Shown here: one piece after another, positions 6,358 through 51,225 of the stretch
Numbering within the stretch: position 1 is the first letter of the stretch
Layout: the number at the start of each line of letters is the position of its first letter
Source: a virus
Taxonomy: Duplodnaviria; Caudoviricetes
Length of the DNA stretch: 53,058 bases
Strand: one strand, 5' to 3'
Virus record (IMG/VR): IMGVR_UViG_3300044625_001301
Location: 1 to 53,058 of that record
The notes under the pieces: generated by a model
Seen by the model: the letters and a program-made list of their open reading frames with translations, nothing else
Told to the model about the DNA's origin: nothing
The model's database searches: none
Made by a program: the position numbers and the translations under genes

Positions 6358-9300
6358 CTACTTCTTTTTGCGGGGAATCGAGGGAGGCGTCCAGGTGCCG
6401 CCTTTCTTGGAGGGGTCACCGGCGGGCTTGCGCTTGGCCCAATCCTGCGGCGGCTTGGCCACGCTGGTGGACGGCGGCTTGGGTTTGCCGTAGGCCTTGG
6501 CGACCGGGTCCTCGCCGTCGTACTTGGTCCAGTCGGCGAGGCGCTCAATCTCGGCCACCAGTTCCCGGTGGGTCTTGGCAGACGTCTTCTTGCGGCAGGA
6601 GCCGGACGCGCACGGCTCGGTGTTGGGCACCCGCTCGTAGCCCTCCCAGCAGGTGCAGCCGCCGTCGCCCTTGGCGATCTTGGCGTAGTGCGCGCTTTCA
6701 TCTTCTTCTCTGTCGAGATCGTGCGAGCATTTCACACCGTCAAGGTTGTATATCGAATCTTTTTCGGCGACCCGGTCAGCGTGCTCGACTGCCTCGTCGT
6801 GGCCCATCCCCTGACTTTTGGCTAGATCGAAAGCGTTCTCGTGTGCAGACTGCCAAGCCATGTCCCTGCATGCTTCGCAGTCTGCAGCATCACGAGCAGC
6901 CAGCTTCTTATTCGCCATGATCACATTGTCGCGCACCGGAATCTCGCGGGCGATGAACACCTCGGCGGAGTCCGACGCCAGGTGGTGGGTGTCGCCGATC
7001 GCGTAGACGTTCCAGATTTTCCCGCACGAGCAGGTCTTGTACGACGGCGCGGCGACCTTCTGGCCGCAGGAGCAGGAGAACGGCTTGGCCTCCTTGGCCA
7101 GGTAGCCGTTGAGGTGATCGTCCCAGCGCCATCCCGGCACCTTGCGGGTGAAGAAGCTGGCCTTCTTGGTCGGCTCCCACTCGCCCCAGGTGGCGTCACG
7201 CCGACCGGCACCGATCAGGCGTGGGTCCATCGGGTCCTGGGAGTCGTCGGGGTCCCAGCCGCCGGTGTAGGGGACGATCTCGGCGTCATAATTTTTGGGG
7301 TAGTAGACGGGTCCGTAATTGTCGTTGACGCTGATCTTGCCCTCGGAGTTACCTTCCGGGTACTTGCTGATGCCGAGAAATTTGTCCTGATCGCCCCGGA
7401 AGTTGGTGAGCATGTCACCCGGCTTGAAGAGGGTGCCGTCCTGATGCTGGACCATGTACTTCTCCCCGTTGCGGGGGTTGGTGAACACATGCTCGGGATC
7501 GTCGTCGTCGCGGGTGTGGTAGCCACCGTGCTCGTTGATGAACTTGGAGATCCGGCTGCCCAGTTTCTGCCGGTCACCCTTCTTGGTGACCGGGTTGACC
7601 GCCCTGGCGGGGTTGTTCTTCGGGTTCGGCGGCTCCTCGACGAAGGGGTGCTCGGGGACCCCGATCGCCTGGTGGACCTCCTCCTGGCCGCGCGGCCCGA
7701 CCTTGTGGGTCTGGAGGTACTTCTCGGCCATCGGGTCGCCGCCGGTGTTCAGACCCATCTCGGTCTGCTTGTCCATCCAGCGGCGGACCTTGGTGCCCAG
7801 ATCCAGTGCGGTGCGGCGGCTGTTCTTCTTCGGCTTGGGAAGTCCCTTAAACGTCGGCTGGGGCAGGTCGTTGATCGCCATGTTGTCGGTGATCTCGGGG
7901 GTCTGCCCGGCCTTGGGATGCTCGAAGGCGTCCATCGTCGGGGTGTTCTTCCAGGTCTCACCGGCGGTCCGACCGCCAACCGTGTACCGGCTCGGCTCAG
8001 GGTAGTGCTCCCGGACGTAGTCCTCGTGGTAGGCCTTGTCGGGGTAATCACCGTAGAGGTGGTCGCCCAGGCTGCCGTCGCCCCGGTGGGTGATCTGATA
8101 CGGGTCCTCTTCGTACTCGGCCAGTCCTTCAGCCAGGTCGCGGACACCGTGCTCGTCGCGTCCCCGGTCCCGGCCACTGGCCCAGGCGTCCCACTCCCGG
8201 TCCCTCGGGTCGGAGGCTGTCCGGAAGCCCGCTGCGCGGGCTTGATCAAAAGGGAGGCGGCCCCTAGAACCCTCGCGGTTGTACATCTTGCGGTAGTCGT
8301 ACATCTTGCGGTAGTCGGGGTCGTCTTCCCAATGATTCTGCTCGTCCTCGGCCTGGGCGTCGGCCAGGTCGTTGCGCTTGTGCTCGTCGCGGCCCCGGTC
8401 TCGGGACTGGCTGTAGGCCTTGTCCTGATAGCGGTCCTTGCCGGTGGCGGCCATCCGGGGTCCGACCACCGAGTCCATCCACACGTCGTGGTTGAACAGC
8501 GAGTTGTCGGCACCGAACATCTCGCCGATGTGGCGGGCCGCCGCCCGGACCTCGGGGGTCTGCAGTGCCTGCGGGGGCAGGATGCGGAACGCCTCGGCGA
8601 CGTGCTCGTACTGGCGTCGGCTCATCGCCTCCCGGAGCATCCGCTCGGAGACCCCGTAGGTGCGGGCGATCAGGTGGGCGGCGCTGGCCAGGACCGTGGT
8701 CTTCTTGGCCTTCCGGATCAGCCGGGCCAGCTGCTGCTGGGGGTTTCCCGCGCCGCCCGGTGCCTGGGAGGGGTCGACGTTGACGCTGCCCTCCGGCGGG
8801 GTGACGTCCATCGGATGCTCGGCCTGCTCGACCTGCTGGGCGAACTGGACAGCCTGAAGGGCCTGGCTCAAAGGTCCGATGATCTGCTGGTACTCCTGGG
8901 TCTCCCGGTCGATCATCTGGGTGATGGCCTGACCGGCGGTGTCCAGCAGCGCGTCCTCGGCGGGCTGGTTCTCCATCGGCATCGGGGGCTGCGGGGGTGC
9001 CACCGCCTGGCTGCCGGGAGGAGGCATCATCTGGCCCATCGCGGCGGGGTCACCGCCGCCCATCGCGGCAGCAGGGTCTTGGGCCGGGGCGGCCTGCTCG
9101 CCGCCACCGCCACCTTCGGATTCCTGCTCCTGCTCACCCTCGGCGGCCCAGAACGAGCGGGCGGCGGATTTGGCCTTGCCCTTGAACTCGTGGTCACACT
9201 TGGAGCACTTGAACTCCTTGGACTGGCCGTATGCCGGGTTGCCGGTTTGCTTAGTGCTCTTGGAGCCGCACCCAGAGCAGGCAGGGAAGTCATAAGCGGC

Positions 9301-10686
9301 GGCACGGCGGCGGGCTACACGCGGCGGCTCCTGCTCAGGGTCGCCGCCAGCCCCGCCGAAAAAATCGTCACCACCACCCTGCGGTGCTCCCTGCTCAGGC
9401 ATCGGCGGACCGGACATGCCGGGGTCGCCGCCCTGGCCCTGCTCGACCTCTTCGAGCAGCAGCTGCTCGATGGTGCCCTCGGGCAGACCGAGCAGCGAGT
9501 CGATGACCTCCGGCGGGACCGGGGCCGAGCCGCTGGCGTCGTCCTGGGGGATCTCCTGCATCATCTCCGGGGGCAGCGGAGGGGCTTCCTGCGGGACGGT
9601 GAAGGACTCCCCGCCCGATTCCGGAGCAGCATCGCCACCCACCTGGTCGCCCATACCGCCGCCGAAGTCGCCGCCTCCGGAACCGCTGTCGTCGCTGCCG
9701 CCCTTGTCGCTCTCAGAGTCTTCCGAGTCGTCGTCCTCAGAGTCGTCGTCAGAGTCCTCAGAGTCGTCGCTGCCGCCGAAATCGCCGCCCTTGTCCTTGG
9801 TGGGAGCATCATCGCTGTCACTTTCGGATTCCGACGACTCGGAGTCGTCGCTGTCGTCATCGTCGTCGCTGTCGTCGCAGTCCTCGGCGGCCCGGATGAT
9901 CATCGACTGCAGGAGCCGGTAGTCGGCGTCGTGGATGCCGGTGCTGGCGTAGCGATCCAGGGTGTCCAGGGAGGCCACCCGCATCCCGTTGGAGCGGGCG
10001 AAGTCGGTGTAGATGTCGGCGACCAGACGGGCGGCTTCCTTCTTGTCGTGGTCTTCGACCTGATAGCCGCCGTTCTCGTGGTCGGGGCGGTAGGTCTTGC
10101 CCTTCCAGGAGTGCTGGTCATCCAGTTCTCTGTCCCGACCCGTGTCGGGATCAGCCTCACCGGCCTGGCGGCGGCGGGCGTGCCGGTCGGAGCCGGAGTC
10201 CCCGCCGGGGGTGAAGTCGTTGCCGCTGACCTTCTCGGGGCCGTCCTGGTCGACCGAGTCTTTCCAGCCCTCGAAGTCACCCTTGGGGATCAGGTTGCCC
10301 GACGACGGGTGGTAGGTCTCGTCGAGGTCTTGGTTCTTGGGCGGGCCGTCGCCGGAGGGCATCGAGCCGAACCCGGCCTCGTCGTGGCTCAGAGCCACCT
10401 TGTAGGGGTGGGCGACCTTCCAGTCCTGCTTCATCGCGTTCTGGATGCGGCGCATGGTGCCGGTGTTGGGGAAGATGTACGGCTCGACGGCGGCCCGGAT
10501 GTCGTGCTTGCTGTAGTGCCAGCGGTCACCGAACTCGTCGATCCCGGTCGCGCCCAGCAGGAAGCGCCCGAACTGGGCGCGGACCACGTCGATCGCGGCC
10601 TCCATGTGGCGGGCTGCGGTCTTCGCCGCCAGTCGTGGCTCGTGCTGCGCGGCCTCATCAGATTCGAACAGACCAAAGTCGGACAT
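6358..10686 (-). CDS. Very large (1442 aa) acidic/low-complexity head-associated protein with several Zn-ribbon motifs
   Basis: Long ORF; D/S/E-rich tracts; CSGC..CSKC, CSC..CSC, CTC..C..C motifs; many [RK]xA linker motifs; preceded by late-promoter motif. Confidence 0.8.
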   Translation of the reverse strand: MSDFGLFESDEAAQHEPRLAAKTAARHMEAAIDVVRAQFGRFLLGATGIDEFGDRWHYSKHDIRAAVEPYIFPNTGTMRRIQNAMKQDWKVAHPYKVALSHDEAGFGSMPSGDGPPKNQDLDETYHPSSGNLIPKGDFEGWKDSVDQDGPEKVSGNDFTPGGDSGSDRHARRRQAGEADPDTGRDRELDDQHSWKGKTYRPDHENGGYQVEDHDKKEAARLVADIYTDFARSNGMRVASLDTLDRYASTGIHDADYRLLQSMIIRAAEDCDDSDDDDDSDDSESSESESDSDDAPTKDKGGDFGGSDDSEDSDDDSEDDDSEDSESDKGGSDDSGSGGGDFGGGMGDQVGGDAAPESGGESFTVPQEAPPLPPEMMQEIPQDDASGSAPVPPEVIDSLLGLPEGTIEQLLLEEVEQGQGGDPGMSGPPMPEQGAPQGGGDDFFGGAGGDPEQEPPRVARRRAAAYDFPACSGCGSKSTKQTGNPAYGQSKEFKCSKCDHEFKGKAKSAARSFWAAEGEQEQESEGGGGGEQAAPAQDPAAAMGGGDPAAMGQMMPPPGSQAVAPPQPPMPMENQPAEDALLDTAGQAITQMIDRETQEYQQIIGPLSQALQAVQFAQQVEQAEHPMDVTPPEGSVNVDPSQAPGGAGNPQQQLARLIRKAKKTTVLASAAHLIARTYGVSERMLREAMSRRQYEHVAEAFRILPPQALQTPEVRAAARHIGEMFGADNSLFNHDVWMDSVVGPRMAATGKDRYQDKAYSQSRDRGRDEHKRNDLADAQAEDEQNHWEDDPDYRKMYDYRKMYNREGSRGRLPFDQARAAGFRTASDPRDREWDAWASGRDRGRDEHGVRDLAEGLAEYEEDPYQITHRGDGSLGDHLYGDYPDKAYHEDYVREHYPEPSRYTVGGRTAGETWKNTPTMDAFEHPKAGQTPEITDNMAINDLPQPTFKGLPKPKKNSRRTALDLGTKVRRWMDKQTEMGLNTGGDPMAEKYLQTHKVGPRGQEEVHQAIGVPEHPFVEEPPNPKNNPARAVNPVTKKGDRQKLGSRISKFINEHGGYHTRDDDDPEHVFTNPRNGEKYMVQHQDGTLFKPGDMLTNFRGDQDKFLGISKYPEGNSEGKISVNDNYGPVYYPKNYDAEIVPYTGGWDPDDSQDPMDPRLIGAGRRDATWGEWEPTKKASFFTRKVPGWRWDDHLNGYLAKEAKPFSCSCGQKVAAPSYKTCSCGKIWNVYAIGDTHHLASDSAEVFIAREIPVRDNVIMANKKLAARDAADCEACRDMAWQSAHENAFDLAKSQGMGHDEAVEHADRVAEKDSIYNLDGVKCSHDLDREEDESAHYAKIAKGDGGCTCWEGYERVPNTEPCASGSCRKKTSAKTHRELVAEIERLADWTKYDGEDPVAKAYGKPKPPSTSVAKPPQDWAKRKPAGDPSKKGGTWTPPSIPRKKK
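8281..8316. repeat. Perfect 18-bp tandem duplication (DYRKMY x2)
   Basis: GTACATCTTGCGGTAGTC occurs twice in tandem, in frame. Confidence 0.9.
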
Positions 10687-10764: not shown

Positions 10765-10992
10765 GAAAACCCGGTGCAGGGTCGGCAGCAGGGTCAGGTA
10801 CTCCCCGGCGCTGAGGATCTCGGGCTGCCCGGTGCTGCGGTCGACGAGGACCGTCAGGTTGGCGTACTCGTCGAGGTCGGTGTCGCGGAAACCGATCACG
10901 TAGCCGGTCTCGCTCTCCAGCACCCCGGCGGGGTTCACCGGCTGCTCCAGAGTCTGTCGGGCGATCTGGATCGCCTCGTCGATGTCGATCAA
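10762..10992 (-). CDS. Putative immunity protein (Imm35/YrhB-like)
   Basis: 76 aa acidic protein, IDEAIQIARQ..E.ETGYVI..VLVDRSTG pattern; start overlaps the stop of the upstream toxin-tipped ORF. Confidence 0.6.
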   Translation of the reverse strand: MIDIDEAIQIARQTLEQPVNPAGVLESETGYVIGFRDTDLDEYANLTVLVDRSTGQPEILSAGEYLTLLPTLHRVF

Positions 10993-13900
10993 CGGTCCCC
11001 CTGTGGGTCGTGTGGGGCGAAGATCGGGGTCCCGTCGGCGGTCCCCCGGTCGACCAGGAACTTGGCGGTCTCGGGTGCCAGCGTTTTGTCGTCGGTGCGC
11101 AGGAACCGCAGCGGCGACTCGATCTTGTTGCGTTCCACGATTCTAGCAGCCGGGTCGGTGGTCAGGATGTTTTTCCGGCGGCTGCGGCCATCGAGCGCGG
11201 TGTAGTCGACCCGGTCCCGGTAGTGGTCCCCGCTGCTGCCGCGTATCTGGTGGTCGAGGTAGTGGACCTGGCCGCTGTCACCGACTCGGGCGTTGAAGAC
11301 GTGGCGGACGAACTCGTTGGCGTGGGGGTGGGGGTAGGAGGCCATGATCACGGCCCGACCTCCGGGACCCCAGCTGGCGATCTGGCGGGTCATGTGGTCC
11401 CAGTGGTGGGGGCCGTCGTCGCCCTCGGCGAAGTGGTCCTGGGGGTCGATCCAGGCCGCCGGGACACCGTTGGCATCGCGCCACCAGGCCGCCAGCTCGT
11501 GGTCCTTGGGGATGTAGTCGTTGGTGTGTCCGCCCTTGGGGGAGTGGTACCGCTGCTGGGCCTCGACGTTGAGGCCGTGGTAGTTGGCGTCGGCGGCCAG
11601 CGCGCAACGTTGGCAGTTGATCATGTAGGCCCGCTGGCTGGCCAAATCGGGGTCCCCGGTCCCGGCCTTGAAGCGGGGGTTGATCAGTTCGCCGCCGATG
11701 TGCCGGTCGGGGTCGGGGATGCGGGAGAAGTGCTCCAGGGAGGGGACCGCGAACTTGCGGCTGTGCTGAAGCTCGACCCTGAGCAGGTCCCGGTGGCGCA
11801 GCAGCCGGAGGTGGGAGTCGAGGTCGTTGGGGTTGGCCAGGACCCGCTCGGCGGCCTGGTGGTAGGCACCGGCCATCCGCTTGAGCGCGCCGTAGTGGGT
11901 CTCGGCGGCCCAGGCCGGGGTGAGGTCGATGTGGTGGGCGTTGTGGTGGCCGCGCAGCGACTGCGGACCCTCGGGGTGCGCGCCGTGCAGTGCGTAGTGG
12001 TCGCGGCGGGCCAGGACCTCCTGGGCGTGGGCGATCGCCTCGTCCGGCGCAGCGGCCAGCCGGGCGTTGCGCTGCTCGTAGCTCCGCTGCATCTGGGTGC
12101 GCTTGTCAAAGATACGGGTGAGCCGATCCAAGTCGGCAGACTGATCCATGCGGAAGGGGTGCGACCGGTTGTGCAGCAACAACGCCCCGGCGGCGACCTC
12201 CTTGGGGTCGTAGCCGTGCCGCTCCACCGCCCTCGGGCCGGTCTGATAACGCCTGCCCTTCTCCGGGTAGTCAAGCATGTCTCCGGCCTGCTCCTGGCCC
12301 ATGCTGAAGCCTTTATGCGCCGCCGGGTAGCGCTCCTTGAGGAACTTCTCGATGTTCTTCCAGCTTCGCTCCGGTGGGAACGAGGCCGTGGGGTGCAGGG
12401 CGTCTCGGTTCTGCCCGGCCCATTCGCGAAACTCTTTTGCGATCCTGCTGGTGACTTCTTCGGGATCGAACCCCGCCGTCCGAAGGAATACAGCAGCCTG
12501 GCGAGTGCGCTGCTCGTAGGTGCGCTGCATCTGGTACCGCTTCTGGGCGATGTCGGTGAGGCGCTCGACGTCGCGCTGCTCCATGTCGCCCCGGAGCGGG
12601 TTGGAGCGGTTGTGCAGCAGCAGCATTGAGGCGGCGACCTCGGCGGGGTCGTAGCCATGCTTGGAGACCGCCTCAGGTCCGGTCTCATAGGGGGTCAGGT
12701 CGGCGGTGCCGTGCTGCTGGTAGGGCATCGGCCCGAGACCGTCGAGGGGCCTGGCGGCCTCCTCCAGGCCCATCTCGTGACCCTTGTGGGCCGCCGGGTA
12801 GCGGTCCTTGAGGAACGCCTCGATGTTGGGCCAGTGGCTGACCGGACCCTCGTCCGGGTTGCCGTGGTCAAGCCAGCCCTTCACCTCCGGGGCACCGGCC
12901 TTGTAGCGGGCGGCGAAGGTGTCGGTCCACCAGTCGTGGAACTGCTTGTCCAGCTTGTTGACCAGATCCTGGTTGAGGGCGGCGGTCCGCTCCGCGCGCA
13001 GCCTGTCGTAGTAATCCTTCAGGTGCGCGCTGGCAGCGCCGTGCTCCTCGGGGGGCAGCTTGCGGACGATCCGGGCGCGGGGGGAGACCAGTCGGGGGAA
13101 GTCCTCATCGTTCTCGGTGGGTCGGAACTTGCCGTCATCCCGCAAAATGTTGTTCCAGATCCACGGCCCCTCGTCGAGCGGCTCCAGCTCGTAGACGTTC
13201 TTGTGGTATTTCGTCGCCGGTGCCGGGTGGTTGTACATCCAGACCCAGTCGGCGTGGTTGGGTGCCCCAATGGAGTTCTCGTAGTAGTCGATCCGGTTCT
13301 GGTCGCCTCGGGCGCGGACCGACTCCAGGATGTCTCCGGGCTGATGCTCGTGGTCGCTGCCGTGGTAGAAGCTGCCCTGTTCGGGGATGTCGTCGGTCTT
13401 CTTCTTCCGGTCCATGACCAGGTAGTCGTAGGCGTCCCGTGACGGCATCGCCAGGCGGGCCTGCCGGGGGTGCAGGCCGGTGATGTCGCCGAACACCGAA
13501 GCCGCCTCCGGCCCCAGGTGCTGGTGGTAGAGCGCGTGCAGCAGTTGCTGGAAGCGGGGGCCGTGGCCGTCCCGGTGGTCGGTGTTGGTCAAGACGTGGG
13601 CGGTCTCGTGCAGCAGGGTCAGCGTGTTGGTGTGCTGCCCGGCCAGCGCGATCTTGTTGCCGTCGGTGTAGGCCTGCCCGGACCCCGGCTCCCGCAGCCC
13701 CCAGTCGTTGGGTTCCACCCGGATGCCGCCGCCGTGGCCGTGGCTGCGCAGGATGTCGTTGACGAACCGCTCGGCCTCGGCGGAATGTTCACGCTGCAGC
13801 CGCCGCACGTCGGGCTGGCCGTACTGGTCGTAGTAGCCGTGCTGGTGGGCCTGGGCGACGTTGGCGTTGGGGACGTGGAACGTCTGGCCGCCGAACCCGG

Positions 13901-14387
13901 CCCGCTCCATCACCTGCTCGGCCACCGATACCCGGCCCTCGTCGTCAAGGGAGTGCCCGTCGGCGGCGGCCAGCCTGCGCAAGTCCTCGGTCACGTCGGC
14001 CTCGATCGCGGCGGTGTGGGAGCCATCCTCCAAAATGGCGTCCCAGGCCTGTGGGGGCCGGGTCGGCGACGGGGTGGCTTTGGCCCATGCCTTGCCCGCG
14101 TCCGTCTGGTATTCAGGCCGGTCGTGCATGGGACGGCCCGCCGCTTCCCACATCGCGGTGCCCACACCCTTGCGGCGGTGCTTTTCCTCCACCTCGATGT
14201 TGGCGACATACGGGGTGTCGTCGTCTAGCCGGTCGATCTCTATCCACCCGGCGTGCTCGCCGTTGATGGTGGCCTTCACCATGTCACCTTCGTTGGTGAT
14301 CTCCAGGCCGGGGATGTGCTTGGCGGCAGCAGTCTTGCCTGTGACGTCGTCGTCCAGGCCGTCCAACCCCCACAGCCCCCAACTCAT
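10989..14387 (-). CDS. Multi-domain polyvalent protein: GNAT, HExxH metallopeptidase, Arr-like ADP-ribosyltransferase fold, two internal repeats, C-terminal Tox-PL-like papain-fold domain
   Basis: VANIEVEEKHRRKGVGTAMW (GNAT motif A); LLHETAH...HGPRF (zincin); FYHGSD...VWMY...VYELEP; NCQRC...HVFNA...YLD (Cys-His-Asp). Confidence 0.8.
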   Translation of the reverse strand: MSWGLWGLDGLDDDVTGKTAAAKHIPGLEITNEGDMVKATINGEHAGWIEIDRLDDDTPYVANIEVEEKHRRKGVGTAMWEAAGRPMHDRPEYQTDAGKAWAKATPSPTRPPQAWDAILEDGSHTAAIEADVTEDLRRLAAADGHSLDDEGRVSVAEQVMERAGFGGQTFHVPNANVAQAHQHGYYDQYGQPDVRRLQREHSAEAERFVNDILRSHGHGGGIRVEPNDWGLREPGSGQAYTDGNKIALAGQHTNTLTLLHETAHVLTNTDHRDGHGPRFQQLLHALYHQHLGPEAASVFGDITGLHPRQARLAMPSRDAYDYLVMDRKKKTDDIPEQGSFYHGSDHEHQPGDILESVRARGDQNRIDYYENSIGAPNHADWVWMYNHPAPATKYHKNVYELEPLDEGPWIWNNILRDDGKFRPTENDEDFPRLVSPRARIVRKLPPEEHGAASAHLKDYYDRLRAERTAALNQDLVNKLDKQFHDWWTDTFAARYKAGAPEVKGWLDHGNPDEGPVSHWPNIEAFLKDRYPAAHKGHEMGLEEAARPLDGLGPMPYQQHGTADLTPYETGPEAVSKHGYDPAEVAASMLLLHNRSNPLRGDMEQRDVERLTDIAQKRYQMQRTYEQRTRQAAVFLRTAGFDPEEVTSRIAKEFREWAGQNRDALHPTASFPPERSWKNIEKFLKERYPAAHKGFSMGQEQAGDMLDYPEKGRRYQTGPRAVERHGYDPKEVAAGALLLHNRSHPFRMDQSADLDRLTRIFDKRTQMQRSYEQRNARLAAAPDEAIAHAQEVLARRDHYALHGAHPEGPQSLRGHHNAHHIDLTPAWAAETHYGALKRMAGAYHQAAERVLANPNDLDSHLRLLRHRDLLRVELQHSRKFAVPSLEHFSRIPDPDRHIGGELINPRFKAGTGDPDLASQRAYMINCQRCALAADANYHGLNVEAQQRYHSPKGGHTNDYIPKDHELAAWWRDANGVPAAWIDPQDHFAEGDDGPHHWDHMTRQIASWGPGGRAVIMASYPHPHANEFVRHVFNARVGDSGQVHYLDHQIRGSSGDHYRDRVDYTALDGRSRRKNILTTDPAARIVERNKIESPLRFLRTDDKTLAPETAKFLVDRGTADGTPIFAPHDPQGDR

Positions 14388-14563
14388 GTGTCAACCCACT
14401 CTTTGATCACGGCCTCAGCCCGGTCGCGGGTCATCAGCCAGCCGTCGGGGGATTGGACGGCGGCGATCCGGCCCGCGCGGGCCTCGCCCTGGGCGAACTC
14501 CAAAGTCTTGCGGGCGCGGTGGGCGACCTCCACCAGGGAGGCGTGGGTGCGGGGGTTGATCAC
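14384..14563 (-). CDS. Hypothetical protein (about 59 aa)
   Basis: GTG start overlaps upstream stop; own stop overlaps downstream start. Confidence 0.55.
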   Translation of the reverse strand: MINPRTHASLVEVAHRARKTLEFAQGEARAGRIAAVQSPDGWLMTRDRAEAVIKEWVDT

Positions 14564-14796
14564 GACAGCAGACCCTTGAGCTTGTCCGGGGAGAACCCAC
14601 CCCAGTGCTGCTCCCCGTCGCCGACCACCACCACCGGGGCCTGCTGGTAGCCCAGCCCGGTCACGTAGGCGTGGGCGTCGGGGTCGACCGTGACATCTAT
14701 GACACGGTGCTCGATGCCCAGCCGATCCAACTGCTTCTTGGTCATGGTGCACTGCGGGCAGTTGGGCTTGGTGTAGACGGTGACGGCGGCGGTCAT
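14560..14796 (-). CDS. nrdH: NrdH-like glutaredoxin (in-frame C-terminal module with possible own start)
   Basis: MTAAVTVYTKPNCPQCTMTKKQLD...GYQQAPVV...WGGFSPDKL; purine-rich AGAAAAAGG upstream of the ATG. Confidence 0.85.
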   Translation of the reverse strand: MTAAVTVYTKPNCPQCTMTKKQLDRLGIEHRVIDVTVDPDAHAYVTGLGYQQAPVVVVGDGEQHWGGFSPDKLKGLLS

Positions 14797-17643
14797 GATA
14801 TGGGCCTTTTTCTGGTTGATGTTTGAATTAACAATTTCTCCCCGAACATTCGGGCCGTGATAACCCCACTCATGCAAGTCATTGTTAGTCCAGACATGCT
14901 TGGCGGGAACTGTTGACCGCACTATCGGCCAATCCTCATCAGGATTTTCACTCTGCACGGCGTGTTCGCGTGCATACGGCAGGCTAGTGGTTATCCAGTC
15001 TCCAGTGTTTATGTCGGTTTTACCCGAAGGAATTGCTCGATAAATCACAACAGGATGATCGGGATTTCCCCTAGCCTCATTTAACTGACGCTGAATGTTT
15101 TTGATGCCGTAATCCATCGAGTCATACCATTCAGGGTGCTCATAAATGTCGTCCCCCCACATCTGGTTTAAGTCATGAAACGGAGCACCGTGGTCTGGGC
15201 CACCAGGACGATGCTGTCCTTGATAATCTTCACTGGGCATGGCCAGCCGGGCGGCGGTGTGGGGTTCCTTCCAGGGGTGCGAAAGCTCCTCGGCGATGTG
15301 GGCACCATCAGCAACCCAGCCATCGCTGCCGGTGCCGTTCCAGGGCAGCACATTGCTGCTCGGCTCAACCCGGTAGATGTAGCCGCGCCCGTTGTCGCCC
15401 TTCTTGGGAGTCAAACCGGCCCATCCCACCGCCTCGGTCACGCTCGGTGACAACCACACATAGTTGCGGCGATGCTCGGTGCCGTCCTTCTCATACAGGT
15501 TGTTGCCCCACGGCGAATCGTGGCCGGGAGTGAGGTGGGTGCCGACCGGCAGCTTGGTGGGTGAGTAGTGATACCACGGCCCGTCGTGTGGCTCGGGGCG
15601 CTCGTCTGGGTTGTACTCGTCCTCGTCATAGAAGCCGTCGTACACGTCAAACTCGCTAGGCATGGCCAGCCGGGGGGCGATGCGAGGCCCTTTCTTCCAT
15701 TCGGCGTCAAACTCGGTTGTCGGCTCGTCGTAAGAGAACCTTTTGCTGTACTGGTCCAACGGCTCGATGTGAGGAACTTTCGCACGGGGGTCAAACTGGC
15801 TCATCGTCCAATCCACGACGTGATCCCGCCCCTGATGGTTGATGACCGGGGCGTAGTGATCAGCAGGGGCGTAGACACCGTCATCGACAAGTTCGTCAGT
15901 CTCCCAGTGCCCCGGATCACTCTCGCTGTGCTGCAAGTCTTCTCGCGCCGGATTGGGGAACGCTGAAACTGTGGGAAGAAAGAATTGGTGCAGCCTTGGG
16001 TTAAATGAAGGGTGCAGCCCTTCCATAAAAGAAAGAGAGTTGCTCAAACAATCCCCATACCCCCGTTCCGGCTCTTCTGAATATCCGTTCTGAGCAAAGT
16101 CGGAAATGGCTTTGTTCAGATTGGGCATGGCCAGCCGGGAGGCGGTGTGGGAGGCGGTGTGATGGAACGCTGCTGCGGGGATGGGGTCAGGGGAGTAGAA
16201 CGACCGACCTTCCATCTCGTCGTTCCACTCGTTCTCGGGGTCAGGCAGGGCGAGGGCGTCATGGTTGAAGGGCAGCACGACGTGCCCGTCATTTTCTTCG
16301 TCCCAGTTCATGGAGCCGTACTCCTGCTGATCCCGCTCGTCCAGTTCGTTGGCGTACTGGTCGGCATGGCCGGGATGATCCCAAAAATAATTACCTGGGG
16401 TGGCCCCGTCATGGTGCCACATCGCTTCGCCTTTGGTGTAGTCCAGGCCATGCTGTCGGATGGAGTCCACATTGCGGCGTGGCGTGACGTGGTAGTAAAT
16501 GGGCATGGCCAGCCGGGAGGAAGTGATGTAATCGCCCTGCGCCCAGGACGGCTGCCGGTCATAAGTGCTGGCGATGCTGGCAGGATTGTCTGCCAGGTGC
16601 TGCTGGATCGCCGGATGCAGTGGAGTGCCACCCCACCGCTCCAAGTTGCGGGTGCTCTCCCGCAGGAAACGCACCGGCAGGTGGGTCAACCCCGCCTCGC
16701 GGGCAGCGGCCAGTCGGTGGTTACCGTCGGCCACCAAACCCAGTTCGCCGTCGGTTTCCAGGGTGATCGGCATTTGCACGCCGTGCTCGCGGATGTGGCG
16801 CACCAGGTCGGGGTAATGGTCGGAGTCCGTGGCGGCCACCGGGTCGTACAGGTTGTGTGGTTCTAGGTGTTCGATGGGGAATTGCAGCGGGGCGGGCATG
16901 GCCAGCCGGGCAGCGGTGTGGGGGCCGCGCTCCACCTCGTAATCCTCCAAGGTGTCGATGTCGGGGTCCTGGCGGTTCCACACCGGCGGGTTCCAGCCCA
17001 CCGACCGGCCCCAGGCCCGGCCCAGCGGGGTCTGGTCGGTGGAGTGCCCCAGGTCGGGGTCGACGTTGTTGCGGTGCCAGTCCAGCATCGCGGTGCCGAT
17101 GCCCTGGCGGCGGTACTCGGGGGCCACCTTGATCATGTCGATCTTGCCCTGCGCCGGGCGCAGGTAGCCGATCAGGTGCTCGCCGTCGTAGGCGTGCGTC
17201 CAACCCCGGTGCTCGCGGAAGTGCAGGTTCTCCGGCAGGTCGCCGTTGGCCCCTCCCAGCCGGGCGGCGGTGCGGGGGCCGATCCGGTGCCGTTCGATGT
17301 GCTGATGCGCCGCTGCGACCTCATCGGGGTCAGGTTCGTCGTACCAGTCCAGTTCTTGACCTAGCTCCGGCTCCATGTCGCCATGCACGCCGTAGTAGGG
17401 CAGCGGGTGCGCCCCGGCGGAATCATAGGCGTGGGTGTCGTCGTGGGCAAAGAAGTGGGCCGCCGGGAGGTGCGCCGTGCTCAGCGTCCCGATTCCGAGA
17501 TGGGGAAATCTTTCCTTGAGTGCTTGGGCGTATTCCAGGCAGCTGCCGCCCTGCCAGCGATCCCACTCGTCGGTGTTGTGTCCGGCCTCCGAAAGATCAT
17601 TTAGGCTGCCCATCCGCCAGCCGTAGCCCCACAGGTCGCTCAT
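14560..17643 (-). CDS. Eight-module polyprotein: papain-like, GNAT, ParB-like, ART-like, papain/transglutaminase-like, Arr-like ART, ART-like, NrdH glutaredoxin
   Basis: Modules separated by (H/R)TAARLAMP-type linkers. Motifs: GSCLEYA..H..D; VAPEYRRQGIG; DGNHRLAAA; YHVT..IRQHGL; CLSNS..H..DWTMSQF; WYHYS..VWLS..IYRVEP; IYRA..GDWITTS..EWGY; CPQC. Confidence 0.85.
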   Translation of the reverse strand: MSDLWGYGWRMGSLNDLSEAGHNTDEWDRWQGGSCLEYAQALKERFPHLGIGTLSTAHLPAAHFFAHDDTHAYDSAGAHPLPYYGVHGDMEPELGQELDWYDEPDPDEVAAAHQHIERHRIGPRTAARLGGANGDLPENLHFREHRGWTHAYDGEHLIGYLRPAQGKIDMIKVAPEYRRQGIGTAMLDWHRNNVDPDLGHSTDQTPLGRAWGRSVGWNPPVWNRQDPDIDTLEDYEVERGPHTAARLAMPAPLQFPIEHLEPHNLYDPVAATDSDHYPDLVRHIREHGVQMPITLETDGELGLVADGNHRLAAAREAGLTHLPVRFLRESTRNLERWGGTPLHPAIQQHLADNPASIASTYDRQPSWAQGDYITSSRLAMPIYYHVTPRRNVDSIRQHGLDYTKGEAMWHHDGATPGNYFWDHPGHADQYANELDERDQQEYGSMNWDEENDGHVVLPFNHDALALPDPENEWNDEMEGRSFYSPDPIPAAAFHHTASHTASRLAMPNLNKAISDFAQNGYSEEPERGYGDCLSNSLSFMEGLHPSFNPRLHQFFLPTVSAFPNPAREDLQHSESDPGHWETDELVDDGVYAPADHYAPVINHQGRDHVVDWTMSQFDPRAKVPHIEPLDQYSKRFSYDEPTTEFDAEWKKGPRIAPRLAMPSEFDVYDGFYDEDEYNPDERPEPHDGPWYHYSPTKLPVGTHLTPGHDSPWGNNLYEKDGTEHRRNYVWLSPSVTEAVGWAGLTPKKGDNGRGYIYRVEPSSNVLPWNGTGSDGWVADGAHIAEELSHPWKEPHTAARLAMPSEDYQGQHRPGGPDHGAPFHDLNQMWGDDIYEHPEWYDSMDYGIKNIQRQLNEARGNPDHPVVIYRAIPSGKTDINTGDWITTSLPYAREHAVQSENPDEDWPIVRSTVPAKHVWTNNDLHEWGYHGPNVRGEIVNSNINQKKAHIMTAAVTVYTKPNCPQCTMTKKQLDRLGIEHRVIDVTVDPDAHAYVTGLGYQQAPVVVVGDGEQHWGGFSPDKLKGLLS
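15236..16909 (-). repeat. Five identical 15-nt linker repeats CCGGCTGGCCATGCC (encoding RLAMP)
   Basis: Plus-strand GGCATGGCCAGCCGG at 15236, 15659, 16124, 16502, 16895; degenerate copies near 17257 and 13443. Confidence 0.95.
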
Positions 17644-18572: not shown

Positions 18573-20234
18573 TCAGCTGTCAAAGAGCAGATGGTCGTCG
18601 AAATCCCGAATCGAGGCGACCCTCGGTCCGGGATTGAACGTCGGGGTGGACTCCTGCCCGGTCATCGCCGAGCCGTTCCAGACCGCCTTCATCACCGCGC
18701 CGGGGAGGTTGGTAGCCACCGTCCCGGTCTGCATCTCCGGTCCGATGTCGGAGATCCCGGCACCGCCCTCGCCGACCGAGGTCTGCGGTGCGGAAGTCCG
18801 GCGGTGCTTGCCGGGTCCGTTCTGGGGGAATCCCGGACCGCCGCCTTCCATCAGCTGGTCTTCCCACATCCCGTGGTCGTTCTCGTGCAGCCGATGGCGT
18901 CCCGAGTAGCTGCCGTCCAGCGAAAGGTCGGCGAAATCAGGGGTCGGCTGCATGTCCCGGTAGGGGTCGTCGGCCATCGTGTTGCGCCACGGCTCGTCGG
19001 GGTCGACGTCGTGGGCACCGGCCAGCCGGGAGTAGCGGGCAGGGTCGTCGTCGTCGAATTCGGTGTAGCGCAGGTCGCGCTCCAGACCCCGGCGGTCGGT
19101 CGGCTCGGTGTGGTAGTCGTGCTGGCGGAGGTGGTCCTCGTACTCGGCGATGTCCTCGGTCCCGAAGCCGGGCCGGTCATAGCCCGGCCCGAGCGGGTAC
19201 CCGGACACCCGGTGGGAGCCGAGGTGGTTGGGGTTGGCGTAGGGGTTGGGTCCGGGACCGGTGCGGCCCTGCATCCAGGCGAACTCGGCTCCATCGCTGT
19301 GGATGGGGTGCTGTCCGCAGGTCGGGCAGACATCCAGGTCCGGGTCCTGCTCGAAGTCGATGCCCTGCCCGCAGTTCAGGCACTCATCGTCGGGGGCCTC
19401 CATGCCGCCCCAAGAGACTGCGGTCCGGCGAGCCGAACGGTCGCGCCCACCCTTGGTCCGGTCGGCCTTGGGCGGCAGGTATTCGGTGTACTGCTGTCCG
19501 GGACCCTCGGGGGTGCCCTCCAGCCCGCCCATCGGCGAGACCTTCAGGTGCTGCTGGGTGACCGGGTCATAGCCGTACAGGTGGCCGGTCTCATCGGCGT
19601 GGTAGGGGTGTTCTTCGTTGACCAGTCCCCGCATGTCGAACCGTCGGGGGCCTTCCTGGTCGGCGGACATCCCGTCCCAGTCGTCGGGGTAGTAGGGCTT
19701 TGACTGACCGCCGCTGTACTCCTGCCCCGGCTCCAGGGGGGTGCCCTCCAGTCCGCCCATCGGCGAGACCTTCAGGTACTGCTTGGTGTTGGGGTCGTGC
19801 TTGTAGCGGTACCCGCCGACGTTGATCTCGTCGCCTCCGGGCGGGAACATGTTGAACCGGCGGGGGCCTTCCTGGTCCTCGGACAGACCGTCCGCGCCGT
19901 CGTCGTAGTAGCCAGCCTCAACGTCGAAGTCGGCCACCCGGCGGCTGCCCTTGAACGCGCGGGCACCGTCGTCGAGGAAGTCGATGAGCAGCCGGTGCTT
20001 GGCCGACATCAGCTCGCGTCGGGCGGTCTCGGCCTCGTCGGTCAGCGCCAGGTGCGCGGCGGTGAACCCGGATCGGGCCTGGGTGAGCACCTTGTCGGTG
20101 GCGGCGATCCGGGCCTCGATGGACTCCGGGGTGCCGTCGAACCAGCGGCCACGGTCCTGACGCCAGGGTGCGGCGACCCTCTCCAGGGCGCGCATCGCTG
20201 CGGCCAGTCTCAGGTTCTCCGATGAACGGAACAT
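18573..20234 (-). CDS. Probable virion-associated protein with internal duplication and CxxC Zn ribbon
   Basis: 553 aa; DQEGPRRF...LKVSPMGGLEGTP twice; CLNC/CPTC; [RK]xA linkers; RBS GAGGAG. Confidence 0.8.
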   Translation of the reverse strand: MFRSSENLRLAAAMRALERVAAPWRQDRGRWFDGTPESIEARIAATDKVLTQARSGFTAAHLALTDEAETARRELMSAKHRLLIDFLDDGARAFKGSRRVADFDVEAGYYDDGADGLSEDQEGPRRFNMFPPGGDEINVGGYRYKHDPNTKQYLKVSPMGGLEGTPLEPGQEYSGGQSKPYYPDDWDGMSADQEGPRRFDMRGLVNEEHPYHADETGHLYGYDPVTQQHLKVSPMGGLEGTPEGPGQQYTEYLPPKADRTKGGRDRSARRTAVSWGGMEAPDDECLNCGQGIDFEQDPDLDVCPTCGQHPIHSDGAEFAWMQGRTGPGPNPYANPNHLGSHRVSGYPLGPGYDRPGFGTEDIAEYEDHLRQHDYHTEPTDRRGLERDLRYTEFDDDDPARYSRLAGAHDVDPDEPWRNTMADDPYRDMQPTPDFADLSLDGSYSGRHRLHENDHGMWEDQLMEGGGPGFPQNGPGKHRRTSAPQTSVGEGGAGISDIGPEMQTGTVATNLPGAVMKAVWNGSAMTGQESTPTFNPGPRVASIRDFDDHLLFDS

Positions 20235-37819: not shown

Positions 37820-40012
37820 TCATCCCCGGTTCCCGCGTGTCCGGTCCCCGGTGTAGGTGGTCCGGGAGCCGAAGGCGTTGCGCCGGGCGCGGGCCAGCTT
37901 GTTGTTGTGCAGGACCTGCTTGTTGCGGTCGGCGCGCAGCCCGCGTCGCTCGGATTTCTCGGCCTCCTCGGCGAGGTACTTCTGCAGGGGGTCGGTGTAC
38001 TGGTTCTTGTCGTTCTCGTGGTAGAGCAGACGCTCCTGCTCGCGCCCCGAGCGCAGGCCGTCGATCTTGGTGGAGCCGATGCTGGTCCGGTTGATCGCCT
38101 GCCACCAGCGGTCCAGGGACTCGTGCAGCAGCTCGGTGGTCACCACCATCACGGCGTCGGCCAGGTCCTTGGTCTGGATCGGCCCCACCTCCTGGCGATC
38201 GACTTTTCCGTTTTTCTCCTGAAGGAATTTCAATTCCAATTCCAGCAGCGACTGGCTGTCCTCGGCGTAAGTGTCGCGATAGGAATGCACCCACCCCAGA
38301 TTCAGCGCCGATTTAAATTTCTCAAAACGATCCTGATTTTCTTTGACGGTAAATGTTTTCTCAATGATTCTGATGCTGGGAAATGCGCGTTTCTGATGAG
38401 CGATGAATCCGGCGGAGTTGAATTGGTCGTAGCTCATCTTGACCATGCTGGGGTAGCGCATCAGGTAGTCGTCCAGCTCCTCACCCACCTGCACGTAGTC
38501 AATGGTGTGGTTGGGAAAATTCTCCGGCTTCCACACCTTCAGGACGTCGATCACGACGTGCGGCCAGGAAATGCCGTGCTCGTCGGGAGGTGCCTCCTCC
38601 AGGTGTCCGATGCAGAACCCGAAATTGGCGTTGGTGCGGGACGGGTCGGCGTGCGCGCGGTAGGCGATCGACAATTTACCCTGATATTGCTCGACCAGCG
38701 GGTCACGCCAATTCGGTGGGGCGAACATGGAGTCCACCATCACCTCATTCAAATAAGCGTTCTGGACGGTGGCGAACTGGGCACCGCGCTCCACCGCAAA
38801 TTTATCGGGGTTGCGCTGCTGACGTCGGAATTGCACCCTCTCGTCGGGGGAGCCGTCGGGCTTCGGCTCGAACTGCACCGGGTTGTTCCAGCGCGGGAAG
38901 GTCCGGGTGCGGTTGGGCCGGACCAGGATCTCCCGGCTGCGTTCCCAGTCCCGGTACGGCTCCCAGGACGGCAGCTGGATGATCAGGAAAGTCGGCTCGG
39001 CGAACGCTTCGGTGATGTCGTCCGGCTCGACGTCGATGTCCTGGGCGGCGGCCTCCTCCAGGAAGCTGGAGGTCTTGAGTTTGCCCTCGCGGGAGTTGTA
39101 CTCATCCATCGTGACCCTGCCCTGCTGGTACAAATCGTAAAATTTGCCGATCTTCGAGTAGGGGCTGGAAGCGATGTATGTCATTGCGCTGGAACCGAAC
39201 TGGTCCAGGGAGGGCTGGAATGCGTCGTAGATCTCTTCGCCTGTCTTCATCGAGCCGGTGCCCGAAATCATGTGCGCCATCTCGTCGTAGGCGTTCATGA
39301 AGCCGGTGCCACCACGGCCACTGGAGGACACCGATGAGGATGCCTTGCAGTAGATGGTGGCGATCTCCCGGTCGGTGGAGATCCCGGAGAGCCGGTTCTC
39401 CTCGATCATCTGCTCGTCTCCAGCAGTGCGGATGTAGAACTCGGTGTACTTGTCCCCGACGATGTGCTCGCGAAGGTACTCGCAGTTGAGAACCGTGTTG
39501 CGGATGTCGCGAAACTGTCGTGTCACCGCCTGGGTGAGACTTGTTGCGACAACCATGATTTCGGCAACCTGACCGGGAACCTGATTGAAGTGCTGCTGCC
39601 AGGAACCGAGGCTGTAGAGGTAGGCGATCCGCTCGCACCCCAGGATGCCACCCAGGATGCCTTTGGAGGCGCGTCGTCCCATCACCATCTGAACATGCGG
39701 AAAGTGGGTGAAGCCATGCGTTTTCAGATACTCGATGCGATCCCAGATGTCGGGCTGCACGCCGAAAGGCTTGTGGTGGTTCTTGAATCCCTCGGCCCAC
39801 TGACCGATCACGTCGCGATCGTAGTCGGTCATCGTCTCGGTCTCCAGATAGATAAGCTTGAGCAGCGTCATCTGCCGTGGGTATAACCTCTTGCCGCAGA
39901 ACGATTTATGGGTGGCGAAGTCGACAATGGACCCCCAGGGTGGTCCGGTGGCGACCCCGGACTTGAACTGTCCGATCGGGTCGAAGTTGTTGACCAGGAC
40001 GGGTTTGGTCAC
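37820..40012 (-). CDS. terL: Terminase large subunit
   Basis: YPRQ Q-motif, Walker A MGRRASKG, VATSLTQA, Walker B AYDE, coupling motif SSP, nuclease residues HADP, YDQFN, KDLADA. Confidence 0.9.
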   Translation of the reverse strand: MTKPVLVNNFDPIGQFKSGVATGPPWGSIVDFATHKSFCGKRLYPRQMTLLKLIYLETETMTDYDRDVIGQWAEGFKNHHKPFGVQPDIWDRIEYLKTHGFTHFPHVQMVMGRRASKGILGGILGCERIAYLYSLGSWQQHFNQVPGQVAEIMVVATSLTQAVTRQFRDIRNTVLNCEYLREHIVGDKYTEFYIRTAGDEQMIEENRLSGISTDREIATIYCKASSSVSSSGRGGTGFMNAYDEMAHMISGTGSMKTGEEIYDAFQPSLDQFGSSAMTYIASSPYSKIGKFYDLYQQGRVTMDEYNSREGKLKTSSFLEEAAAQDIDVEPDDITEAFAEPTFLIIQLPSWEPYRDWERSREILVRPNRTRTFPRWNNPVQFEPKPDGSPDERVQFRRQQRNPDKFAVERGAQFATVQNAYLNEVMVDSMFAPPNWRDPLVEQYQGKLSIAYRAHADPSRTNANFGFCIGHLEEAPPDEHGISWPHVVIDVLKVWKPENFPNHTIDYVQVGEELDDYLMRYPSMVKMSYDQFNSAGFIAHQKRAFPSIRIIEKTFTVKENQDRFEKFKSALNLGWVHSYRDTYAEDSQSLLELELKFLQEKNGKVDRQEVGPIQTKDLADAVMVVTTELLHESLDRWWQAINRTSIGSTKIDGLRSGREQERLLYHENDKNQYTDPLQKYLAEEAEKSERRGLRADRNKQVLHNNKLARARRNAFGSRTTYTGDRTRGNRG

Positions 40013-40776
40013 CGGCTGTCGCCGTTCAGGTAAGCTCGCAGACCAGGGCCGTGCGGCGTTTCATATTCATCACCCAGGTGGGGGTCGTTGGTGATGTGCA
40101 CGGGCACCTTGCCCCATCCCAGCGCCTGTGCCGCCAGCGCCCGGTGGTGGCCGTCTTCGATCACGGCGTGTTCCGGCCCTGCTCCAATGTAAATTGGCTC
40201 CAGCATGCCGTGCTCGCTGAGATGACCCATCAGCTTGTCCATGTTGTCAAGGTTCCGCCATTCGTTGTCGTGGCGGGCGTAGCTCACGACTTCGTCGGGG
40301 TGAAGGTGAGCATGAACAGCAGCCGAAACGTCCGGCTCGTCCCAATCTAGGTGAGGGTTGAAAACACCACCTGCGGTGTGCAGCGGCCACGGCCCGTCGT
40401 AGGCAGCAGTATGGTAGTCCAGGCCATCCCAGGGCTGCCTTTTTCGAGTCGGTGCCGGGGTAGTTGCAGCCCACGCCCTACCGGCATCAGTCTGGAACTC
40501 AGGCAGGTCATGCGGAGGTCGACCGGCGGCCTCCCACATTGCCGTACCGACCCCCTTTCGGCGATGCTGTGGCTCAACCTCAATATTGCCGACGAACGGC
40601 GCATCATCATCGGTGCGGGAGATTTCTATCCAACCGGCAGGTTCTCCGTTGATGTGCGCCCGCACCACATCACCCTCATTGGTGATGGTGAGTCCAGGGA
40701 CATCTCGGGCAGCCTGACGCCAGGGCGACAGCATCGCGTGCTGTTCCCTGGCCGTAACAATCCGCCGTGTCATCAC
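40009..40776 (-). CDS. GNAT + ParB-like two-module protein
   Basis: VGNIEVEPQHRRKGVGTAMW; HGMLEPI...EDGHHRALAA; RQAA/HTAA linkers. Confidence 0.8.
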   Translation of the reverse strand: MMTRRIVTAREQHAMLSPWRQAARDVPGLTITNEGDVVRAHINGEPAGWIEISRTDDDAPFVGNIEVEPQHRRKGVGTAMWEAAGRPPHDLPEFQTDAGRAWAATTPAPTRKRQPWDGLDYHTAAYDGPWPLHTAGGVFNPHLDWDEPDVSAAVHAHLHPDEVVSYARHDNEWRNLDNMDKLMGHLSEHGMLEPIYIGAGPEHAVIEDGHHRALAAQALGWGKVPVHITNDPHLGDEYETPHGPGLRAYLNGDSR

Positions 40777-44534: not shown

Positions 44535-44550
44535 GATGTCCCCTTCGGGT

Positions 44551-51113: not shown

Positions 51114-51130
51114 GATCGGCCTTTCGGTCG

Positions 51131-51207: not shown

Positions 51208-51225
51208 CTGGAGTCGATCGGCGGG

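Follow-up and report, generated by a model that had tools for sequence, protein, structure and literature searches.

A polyvalent gene between terminase and portal

We examined a 53,058-base virus record (IMG/VR IMGVR_UViG_3300044625_001301; here called the window), estimated to hold 34% of a genome, and within it the gene P0001, whose product joins several unrelated modules through short recurrent peptides, referred to below as junctions. Every confident gene of the window lies on the minus strand. PHROG and Pfam assignments give the order lysins, a two-module GNAT-ParB_N gene, large terminase (TerL, 37820-40012), a stretch of unknown genes, the polyvalent gene P0002, P0001, P0003, DUF7245, portal (3216-5960) and the start of a phrog_2940 protein (Table 1). 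P0001 is thus phage-encoded and lies between TerL and portal, in the setting beside packaging and late genes that marks polyvalent proteins. Judged from its proteins, the phage is an uncultured member of a ~150-kb actinophage group related to Bixzunavirus and Pupper phages, because homologues of the group's protease protein (see below) include the Bixzunavirus mycobacteriophages Cali, Myrna and Nappy as well as the Gordonia phages SCentae and Skog.

A relative, G001 (150,100 bases, 97% complete), is syntenic with the window and has a portal that is 88-92% identical; past the portal it continues with phrog_2940, a 1312-aa protease fusion protein, phrog_2783 and the major head protein. The polyvalent region (10989-17643 in the window, 124130-127766 in G001) is the most variable part of these two otherwise syntenic genomes: G001 encodes a 211-aa leader-ART-glutaredoxin protein (ART, ADP-ribosyltransferase) and a 1004-aa protein, and the window counterparts have 1027 and 1132 aa. 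At the same place in Mycobacterium phage Alice, upstream of gp81-gp82-portal, stands gp75, which is annotated 'ParB-like protein' and contains the motifs GLHTAAD, MQTAAV, LRTAAV and ARTAD.

Table 1. Features of P0001 and of neighbouring genes in the window (residue numbers are those of P0001).
Feature	Residues	Position	Strand	Basis or remark
P0001, polyvalent protein ORF		10989..14387	-	single open reading frame (ORF) of 1132 codons plus stop; GC3 (GC content at third codon positions) 0.90
Type-1 leader (MSWGLWGL...KTAAA)	1-22	14322..14387	-	N-terminus comparison
GNAT acetyltransferase module	23-123	14019..14321	-	PF00583, 26.3 bits (cut-off 20.7), aa32-83
Linker cassette HTAA-IEADVTEDLR-RLAAA (degenerate)	124-142	13962..14018	-	homologues: HTAS-TDGIRYAHI(I/V)EADVAEDLxRLAMP
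Zincin-like module	143-307	13467..13961	-	HETAHVLTNTDH at aa260-271; HETAHxxxxxH motif
Canonical junction RQARLAMP	308-315	13443..13466	-	RLAMP core at aa311-315
Arr-like ADP-ribosyltransferase-fold module	316-466	12990..13442	-	AlphaFold2 (AF2) and Foldseek; aa312-470 modelled
Degenerate junction RTAA	467-470	12978..12989	-	G001 counterpart ARLAAV at the same border
Helical domain, copy 1	471-628	12504..12977	-	50% identical to copy 2
Degenerate junction RQAAVFLRTAG	629-639	12471..12503	-	aligned with YEQRNARLAAAP of helical copy 2
Helical domain, copy 2	640-775	12063..12470	-	DNA repeats D2, D3 and D5; alignment to copy 1
Degenerate junction RLAAAP	776-781	12045..12062	-	homologues: YEQRNARLAMAW(D/Q) or ...RLAMP
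Helical pre-toxin region and papain-fold Gln_amidase toxin	782-1132	10992..12044	-	PF15644
P0002, upstream polyvalent gene		14560..17643	-	start taken as the ATG at 17643
P0002 RLAMP junctions		first bases 16908, 16515, 16137, 15672, 15249	-	motif search
P0002 sixth, degenerate junction RTAARLGG		about 17243-17284	-	DNA repeat copy
P0003 (phrog_2922, 1442 aa), downstream gene		6358..10686	-	leader MSDFGLFE..., then RLAA-KTAA
Two-module GNAT-ParB_N gene		40009..40776	-	type-3 leader (MTRRIVTAREQHAMLSPWRQAA), internal HTAA

P0001 joins effector-type modules in one chain

P0001 combines at least two unrelated effector-type domains: its GNAT and Gln_amidase matches exceed the Pfam cut-offs, the ART module is recognized by its fold and the zincin by its motif. 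A first-pass annotation made from the sequence had listed a GNAT domain, a zincin, an Arr-like ART, a duplicated domain and a toxin, and this list proved right, with the zincin and the Arr-like ART on weaker evidence than the rest. The GNAT module has a paralogue at 40396-40716 that is 70% identical to residues 20-129. The zincin-like module carries HExxH as HETAH (residues 260-264) with an additional His at 270, and matches the SprT-like family PF10263 below its gathering cut-off of 25.6 bits (18.0 bits with the whole protein, 21.7 bits with the module); eCIS_core scores 16.5 bits. Look-alikes found with a language model are stand-alone proteins of 140-173 aa from phages and Actinomycetota, the SprT-like family being assigned to 11% of one cluster, and BLAST gives the module no match among 91 homologues.

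For the ART module, an AF2 model of residues 312-470 built on a 21-row alignment reached a predicted local distance difference test (pLDDT) score of 86.1. Foldseek placed Arr entries at ranks 1-3 (PDB 2hw2, 9iaf and 9iba; E 2.4e-3 to 4.7e-2), with 2hw2 at E 2.4e-3, probability 1.00 and TM scores of 0.39/0.44. VIA-align aligned 110-113 residues to the same entries with Z 8.1/7.8/7.4 and root-mean-square deviations of 6.2-6.5, a Z near 8 being middling; Scabin, Tpt1/KptA and cholera-toxin-type ARTs followed at Z 6.3 and below. The top PDB match of the module's sequence profile (9 rows) was ARR-2 (E 0.062). Pfam gave no match for residues 312-470 and no Arr-ms (PF12120) at E up to 5; Arr-ms is matched by two of the nine aligned members (best E 0.0031). 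Because the sequence and fold rankings agree, the modelled domain is read as an ART fold closest to Arr. Both share the pattern (F/W)YH(G/x)(S/T)...G..L.PG and Y.(V/L)EP; unlike Arr, with which it is 14-18% identical, the module has no Arr-ms match in Pfam and adds an N-terminal DAYD segment and a C-terminal helix. Arr enzymes use a His-Tyr-Asp set of catalytic residues; in the module, the His of the YH motif (residue 342) and Tyr399 are invariant in 21 sequences. A search for shorter stand-alone forms returned two proteins only.

The duplicated helical domain is the commonest module among the homologues, with no match in Pfam and no usable match in an Atlas search. The toxin scores 35.7 bits against PF15644 with the whole protein and 38.4 bits with the module, over the gathering cut-off of 24.1. 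All toxin-bearing rows (11 of 11) retain Cys925 (in NCQR), a His in RH(V/I/M) and an Asp in Y.D(P/H)Q, which by analogy with the papain fold are the likely catalytic residues. Pre-toxin and toxin regions move as one unit in nine homologues, and their AF2 pLDDT is mostly 65-94. With the complete protein, a PDB sequence search gave 0 matches at E up to 1, and Foldseek with the whole-protein model none at E up to 0.001; the weak top Foldseek rows were papain-like clippases, SpvD, AvrPphB and NTAQ1.

A recurrent junction peptide

All eight motifs named in the first-pass annotation lie in P0001 where it had placed them, with KTAAA at residues 18-22, HTAA at 124-127, RRLAAA at 137-142, RQARLAMP at 308-315, RTAA at 467-470, RQAA at 629-632, RTAG at 636-639 and RLAAAP at 776-781. 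That annotation had called the RLAMP near 13443 degenerate, and here the relation is the reverse. Homologues show VAEDLxRLAMP opposite VTEDLRRLAAAD of P0001 (the RRLAAAD site) and YEQRNARLAMAW opposite YEQRNARLAAAP (the NARLAAAP site). Because RLAMP-type sites align to RRLAAAD and NARLAAAP in this way, RLAMP at residues 311-315 is taken as the canonical form, and RRLAAA, RTAA, RQAA/RTAG and RLAAAP as drifted copies.

The motifs are far more frequent than composition predicts. Shuffling P0001 2000 times gave an expectation of 0.06 for R[LTIV]A[AM][APV], against three observed, and of 0.26 for [HRK]TA[AGS], against four, no shuffle (0/2000) reaching either count; plain TAA is weaker (three observed, 0.64 expected, reached in 50/2000). 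For P0002, R[LTIV]AM[PA] occurs five times against 0.00 in shuffles. We then counted the same pattern in a related-protein set of 92 proteins (P0001, P0002 and 90 from a homology search; 95,830 residues), where 124 matches stand against a mean of 0.47 and a maximum of 3 in shuffled sequences; a stricter count that requires full flanks gives 123 sites in 59 of the 92 proteins. The 122 unique sites yield the consensus (H/R)-T-A-A-R-(L66/T39/I13/V4)-A-M-(P98/A24). Within it, HTAA and RLAM resemble each other as if a single unit had been doubled, namely [H/R/K]-[T/L/I]-A-[A/M], which occurs 305 times in the 92 proteins (19.6 expected) and fits every motif of the first pass except RQAA and RTAG. 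A 2A-like ribosome skip was rejected as an explanation of the consensus, Ala rather than Pro following Met in 24 of the 122 unique sites.

A wider sample comes from the ART module, ahead of which the motif recurs in many contexts that are unrelated to each other. A search of 1.84 billion representative proteins returned only 39 clusters with this module; leaving out the query and three partial multi-stretch matches (P0225, P0229 and P0234), 35 rows remain. R-x-A-M-P directly precedes the module's xDAYD start in 22 of these and x-x-A-M-P in four more; two proteins (P0221 and P0233) start at M-P itself, and the other seven rows hold variants such as AAR(T/S)DAYD and RVAAAD. P0006, from a 148.5-kb contig, and P0011 likewise begin with MP followed by a module. 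Such proteins raise the idea that the Met of R-x-A-M-P is the relic start of a once separate gene, or still an active internal start, and in the canonical form the Met is indeed invariant, with Pro or Ala after it. Yet no ribosome-binding sequence precedes the junctions, although GGAGG-like sites are found at many genuine starts in the window; conservation of the Met is matched by that of the residues ahead of it (R-x-A, often HTAA); Ala takes the place of the Met in degenerate junctions; and some proteins that start with MP may stem from truncated gene calls. We give internal starts hardly any weight.

A back-translated TAARLAMP pattern was also run against metagenomes. Nearly all of its 120 loci were chance matches or an unrelated conserved protein (ANHARLNRTAARLAMPEIPEEI), judged by frame length and flanks, and none of the 120 had a second site; in viral contigs the pattern gave six loci, none of them convincing.

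Junctions coincide with module borders

The proposal that the listed motifs bound the modules agrees with high-scoring segment pair (HSP) endpoints, a GNAT paralogue, Pfam placement and a DNA block shared with G001. Of 526 BLAST HSP endpoints on P0001, a set that leaves out those forced by the subject's end, 79% fall within 15 aa of a motif, although such intervals make up 18% of the chain; the endpoints are non-independent and the duplicated domain dominates them. They concentrate at RTAA (112), RQAA/RTAG (128-133) and RLAAAP (129), and number only 0-2 at each of the first three motifs. We take these three as borders as well because the paralogous GNAT at 40396-40716 matches residues 20-129 under a different leader. 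All Pfam and PHROG domain matches in P0001 and P0002 lie between motifs, and none crosses one. Inside P0001, the window and G001 have a single strong DNA block in common (82.9% identity); it begins at the R codon of RLAMP (13457) and ends at 12996. Among the homologues, 34 of the 64 gaps between successive canonical sites measure 100-171 aa, the main mode and the size of a single domain.

Comparison with AlphaFold domain borders, the check suggested in the first pass, succeeded only in part. In the whole-protein AF2 model (16-row mosaic alignment, mean pLDDT 52), helix breaks at 468-472, 638-641 and 779-780 coincide with RTAA, RTAG and RLAAAP, which we give little weight; most of residues 1-471 falls below pLDDT 50, too poor for the comparison.

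Shared leaders and neighbouring genes

The N-termini of the related proteins fall into few types. The type-1 leader of P0001 occurs in 30 of the 92 proteins with the form MS(S/D)WGLWGL, often with HTAA right after, and many read MSWGLWGLHTAA. Type 2, M.RIQRQ.E.FAYR(L/I)A, occurs in 20 and resembles the helix that closes the duplicated domain (KRxQMQRxYEQRNARLAM); type 3, MARRILTAREQHEML.PWR(L/T)A, occurs in three; the remaining 39 have other N-termini, several being plain fragments. Leaders often end in a junction, as in MTWGLWG..HRTAMP, MKIQRQREAFAYRIEQRTAMP and MARRIITAREQHEMLLPWTRTAMP, and in G001 MTWGLWGIGVPDEPWHRTAMP. Prohead cargo of the T4 IP/Alt type carries an N-terminal targeting peptide or propeptide, and the conserved leaders are candidates for such a role. 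In the window the type-1 pattern matches only the consecutive P0002, P0001 and P0003, and in G001 only their counterparts. The structural region of Gordonia phage Pupper contains two proteins, gp101 and gp109, that start with the type-3 leader MARR(I/V)(M/V)TAREQ; in gp109 the sequence continues ...LAPWRTAP, and the protein contains the helical domain of which P0001 has two copies.

As the first-pass annotation had it, adjacent genes have the linker system in common. P0002 carries five RLAMP sites and RTAARLGG, with GNAT, ParB_N, a weak Arr-ms, phrog_2579 and glutaredoxin between its junctions; in P0003 the leader is followed by RLAA-KTAA, as it is by RLAA-RTAA in G001 and by HRIAARKMAAA in Alice gp81; and the GNAT-ParB_N gene, whose end shares 4 nt with the terminase start, contains HTAA.

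P0003 also contains Cys-pair motifs of zinc-ribbon-like type and a long acidic low-complexity stretch rich in Asp, Ser and Glu. Cultured actinophages conserve the protein in 223 records, and all rows shown, Alice gp81 among them, annotate it as hypothetical. A 553-aa protein at 18573-20234 (minus strand) has MFRSSENLRLAAAMRALERVAAPW as its start, which places junction-like units close to the N-terminus; the start of Alice gp70 is MFRSASVVEAEAAQRKLDKL.

The junction as peptide or as DNA

Could the junctions be joints of recombination that are never cut? Modules would then be swapped through short shared DNA, and the protein would work as one long chain. P0002 gives this idea its best case. Its five RLAMP sites share identical codons (CGGCTGGCCATGCC(C/T)), for which codon usage gives P of about 1.5e-4, and they belong to a DNA repeat of 42 nt that is present six times, at spacings of 354-465 nt. 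P0002 also sits in the window's lower-GC stretch, at 0.61-0.65 against about 0.68 in P0001, and is lower in GC than its neighbours. Together these features suggest recent module gain or duplication, or gene conversion. Module order is heavily reshuffled among the homologues, and the DNA block shared with G001 ends at a junction.

The codons nevertheless vary where the peptide does not. The RLAMP of P0001 differs from the P0002 sites at three synonymous positions, and other genomes encode R-T/I/L-A-M-P as CGCACCGCCATGCCC, ...CCG, ...GCG..., CGCATCGCC... or CGGCTGGCT...; this DNA sample is small, with one homologous locus found for the P0001 query, none (0) for P0002 and five for the domain alignment. 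Because synonymous codons vary across genomes and between P0001 and P0002, we read selection on the junction as acting mainly on the peptide. A recombination joint also leaves the junction peptide at the ends of leaders, and in the tail of the protease protein described next, unexplained. Module shuffling and cleavage are compatible rather than exclusive, and as a full account the uncut joint seems to us rather unlikely.

A candidate protease

If the junctions are cut, the enzyme closest at hand is the zincin-like module of P0001 itself, which would cleave in cis, first at the RLAMP directly after it. The HExxHxxxxxH motif, the weak SprT-like match and the position of the sole canonical P0001 site directly after the module speak for such self-processing, which the first-pass annotation had implied, and autoproteolysis by MPTase domains has been proposed for polyvalent proteins (PMC5512222, in the part of that paper available to us). 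The distribution of the module does not favour it. Among the 59 site-bearing proteins the LHExxH pattern, and with it the zincin, occurs in P0001 alone; no BLAST match to the module exists among the 91 homologues; and the other LHExxH carrier, P0082, is unrelated to the P0001 zincin. P0002, with five canonical sites, is without the pattern, and the polyvalent proteins of G001 carry sites, yet DNA homology to the zincin module was not found in G001. The zincin being so rare among site-bearing proteins, an enzyme common to the lineage and acting in trans fits better than cis self-cutting, and we regard the latter as very unlikely.

One protease is seen in the head block of G001. The 1312-aa fusion protein (L138:7924-11862, minus strand) matches phrog_18299, 'head maturation protease', over residues 68-221 (E 1.4e-20). 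An alignment of 20 homologues shows no change at its His90 or Ser143; prohead proteases are typically Ser/His enzymes. Its tail is what points to the junctions. The last ~30 residues read GLGGGT-RTAAA-Gx-R(L/T/V)AA-(H/N)DPxNDSxLFI, and all 120 homologues compared (P0094-P0213; 120 of 120) close with the unit in the form RTA[A/S/G]...R-x-A-A-[H/N]-D-P; within the last 45 residues, R[TLIVM]A[AMS] is present in 94 of the 120, as RTA[A/S]..R[L/T/V]AA[H/N]DP, against a background density of the junction unit of 0.07 per 45 aa. The other 26, mostly from cultured mycobacteriophages, have QRTAGRAVVAANDP (RTAG..AANDP) or a close variant, and cultured Bixzunavirus mycobacteriophages have QRTAGRAVVAANDPRNDASLFI. 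This tail resembles RTAG..DP, RLAAADG and RLAAAPD of P0001. It is what a self-trimming tail would look like, and could be a capsid anchor with self-cleavage sites. Because the tail of its protein carries the junction unit, the head-maturation protease is our favoured candidate for the cutter.

The decoration protein and phrog_2783 of G001 have no junction-like motif. A predicted complex of G001 protease residues 40-230 with a 45-aa leader-plus-site peptide scored 0.02 (mark 0.32), which counts neither way.

Proposed packaging and processing of P0001

Our first choice, held with slightly better than even confidence, is that P0001 is an effector polyprotein that would be packaged by means of its leader and cut at its junctions in trans by the head-maturation protease. 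P0001 would be made late, from the head-gene block, and its N-terminal leader would take it into the prohead. There the head protease would cut canonical junctions, recognizing the unit [H/R/K]-[T/L/I]-A-[A/M] in its full form HTAA-RLAM-P. This would set free the acetyltransferase (GNAT), the peptidase (zincin-like), the ADP-ribosyltransferase (Arr-like), the helical domains and the toxin, which has a papain fold and is of deamidase type; ejected with the DNA, the enzymes and the toxin would act on host targets in the newly infected cell. With its one canonical site P0001 may yield two large pieces, residues 1-~313 and ~314-1132, and P0002 may yield about seven. As to the scissile bond, cleavage before the Met would leave modules that start MP..., as the stand-alone forms do, and cleavage after it would leave P..., as the stand-alone forms would without their Met. 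Initiator Met is generally removed before Pro or Ala.

The first-pass annotation had inferred for P0001 the same delivery and processing logic as for the gene upstream; this proposal agrees with the gene position, with the leaders in common and with the occurrence of the motif in the tail of the protease protein.

Several points weigh against trans processing by the head protease. Seven of the eight P0001 motifs lack M-P, and these drifted junctions, with Ala in place of M-P, may be poorer substrates or escape cutting, so that P0001 may undergo little processing. The identical codons of the five P0002 sites hint at a process at the level of DNA. Over most of residues 1-471 the quality of the whole-protein AF2 model is insufficient for checking domain borders. 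The parallel with the protease tail is a single feature of one family and counts as one observation, the protease assignment rests on the name of one PHROG family, and Pfam and PDB sequence searches of the protease protein gave no protease match. RFRQ(K/R)LAADG at the N-terminus of that protein was dropped as a self-cleavage site, being conserved in close relatives only, and the major head protein of G001 is without a junction-like motif. A literature search found no relevant virion mass spectrometry of Bxz1-like phages.

A wider proposal can be framed, in which the head-maturation protease recognizes [H/R/K]-[T/L/I]-A-[A/M] as its code and this unit, together with a leader of the MSWGLWG or M.RIQRQ.E.FAYR type, forms a load-then-cut capsid system of Bixzunavirus and Pupper-like actinophages. 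We advance it tentatively, as something that may well turn out otherwise.

Other features of the window

An intergenic element occurs in two copies, about 80% identical, at 44540-44660 and 51120-51240 (minus strand). It consists of GGGGGCTTTTGG, which is terminator-like, followed by TTGC(A/G)CTA...CTAT(T/C)CTGGAGC and ACACCACCACC. Leaders with 'caccaccacc', like that of the element, precede the starts at 46047, 51924 and 52878. From its sequence, the element is probably a repeated phage promoter and leader.

Relation to known systems and implications

The cleavage site of the T4 prohead protease gp21 is L/I-x-E, and T4 cargo carries a capsid-targeting sequence. Like T4 IPI-III and Alt (cut by gp21) and the ejection proteins of SPN3US and phiKZ, P0001 and its relatives are encoded by late genes near head genes; their N-terminal leader may correspond to a targeting peptide or propeptide. 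As in prohead-protease cargo, a short motif, here a candidate cleavage site, is reused in many proteins. It differs from T4 in its [H/R][T/L]A[A/M] junction and in the many modules per chain. Ejection proteins of SPN3US are cut by the prohead protease (PMC7411985, PMC10052503), and the P0001 junction likewise differs from the A-x-E-type site of that phage (PMC5694885, PMC10052503), as far as the available parts of these papers describe them.

Polyvalent proteins (Iyer et al. 2017, PMC5512222) are predicted, in the part of that paper at hand, to be packaged and to be processed through MPTase domains. P0001 resembles them in joining unrelated effector domains (GNAT, ART and peptidase, with ParB in a neighbour) beside packaging genes, and in being predicted to travel with the DNA and be processed. 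Unlike those proteins, the P0001 lineage has a defined junction peptide and shared leaders; the same part of the paper gives no cleavage motif, and the word 'linker' occurs 0 times in the paper's text. The lineage's zincin is rare rather than a hub, and its ART is Arr-like rather than of the Tox-ART-HYD2 type. A full-text literature search gave no named cut site for polyvalent proteins, nothing relevant on RLAMP among the papers listed, and nothing on polyvalent proteins of actinobacteriophages.

The junction as a feature is confirmed, and its interpretation as a cleavage site is plausible but unproven. With an exact, countable motif, a candidate protease, matching leaders and cultured relatives that grow on a harmless laboratory host, the P0001 lineage makes the idea open to virion proteomics. 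If the proposed system holds, any enzyme module flanked by junctions could be added to the injected arsenal, which would explain why genomes that are otherwise syntenic vary most in the pre-portal region. The junction could then serve to delimit the modules of hundreds of giant phage proteins from metagenomes, and would be usable for loading chosen proteins into actinophage capsids.

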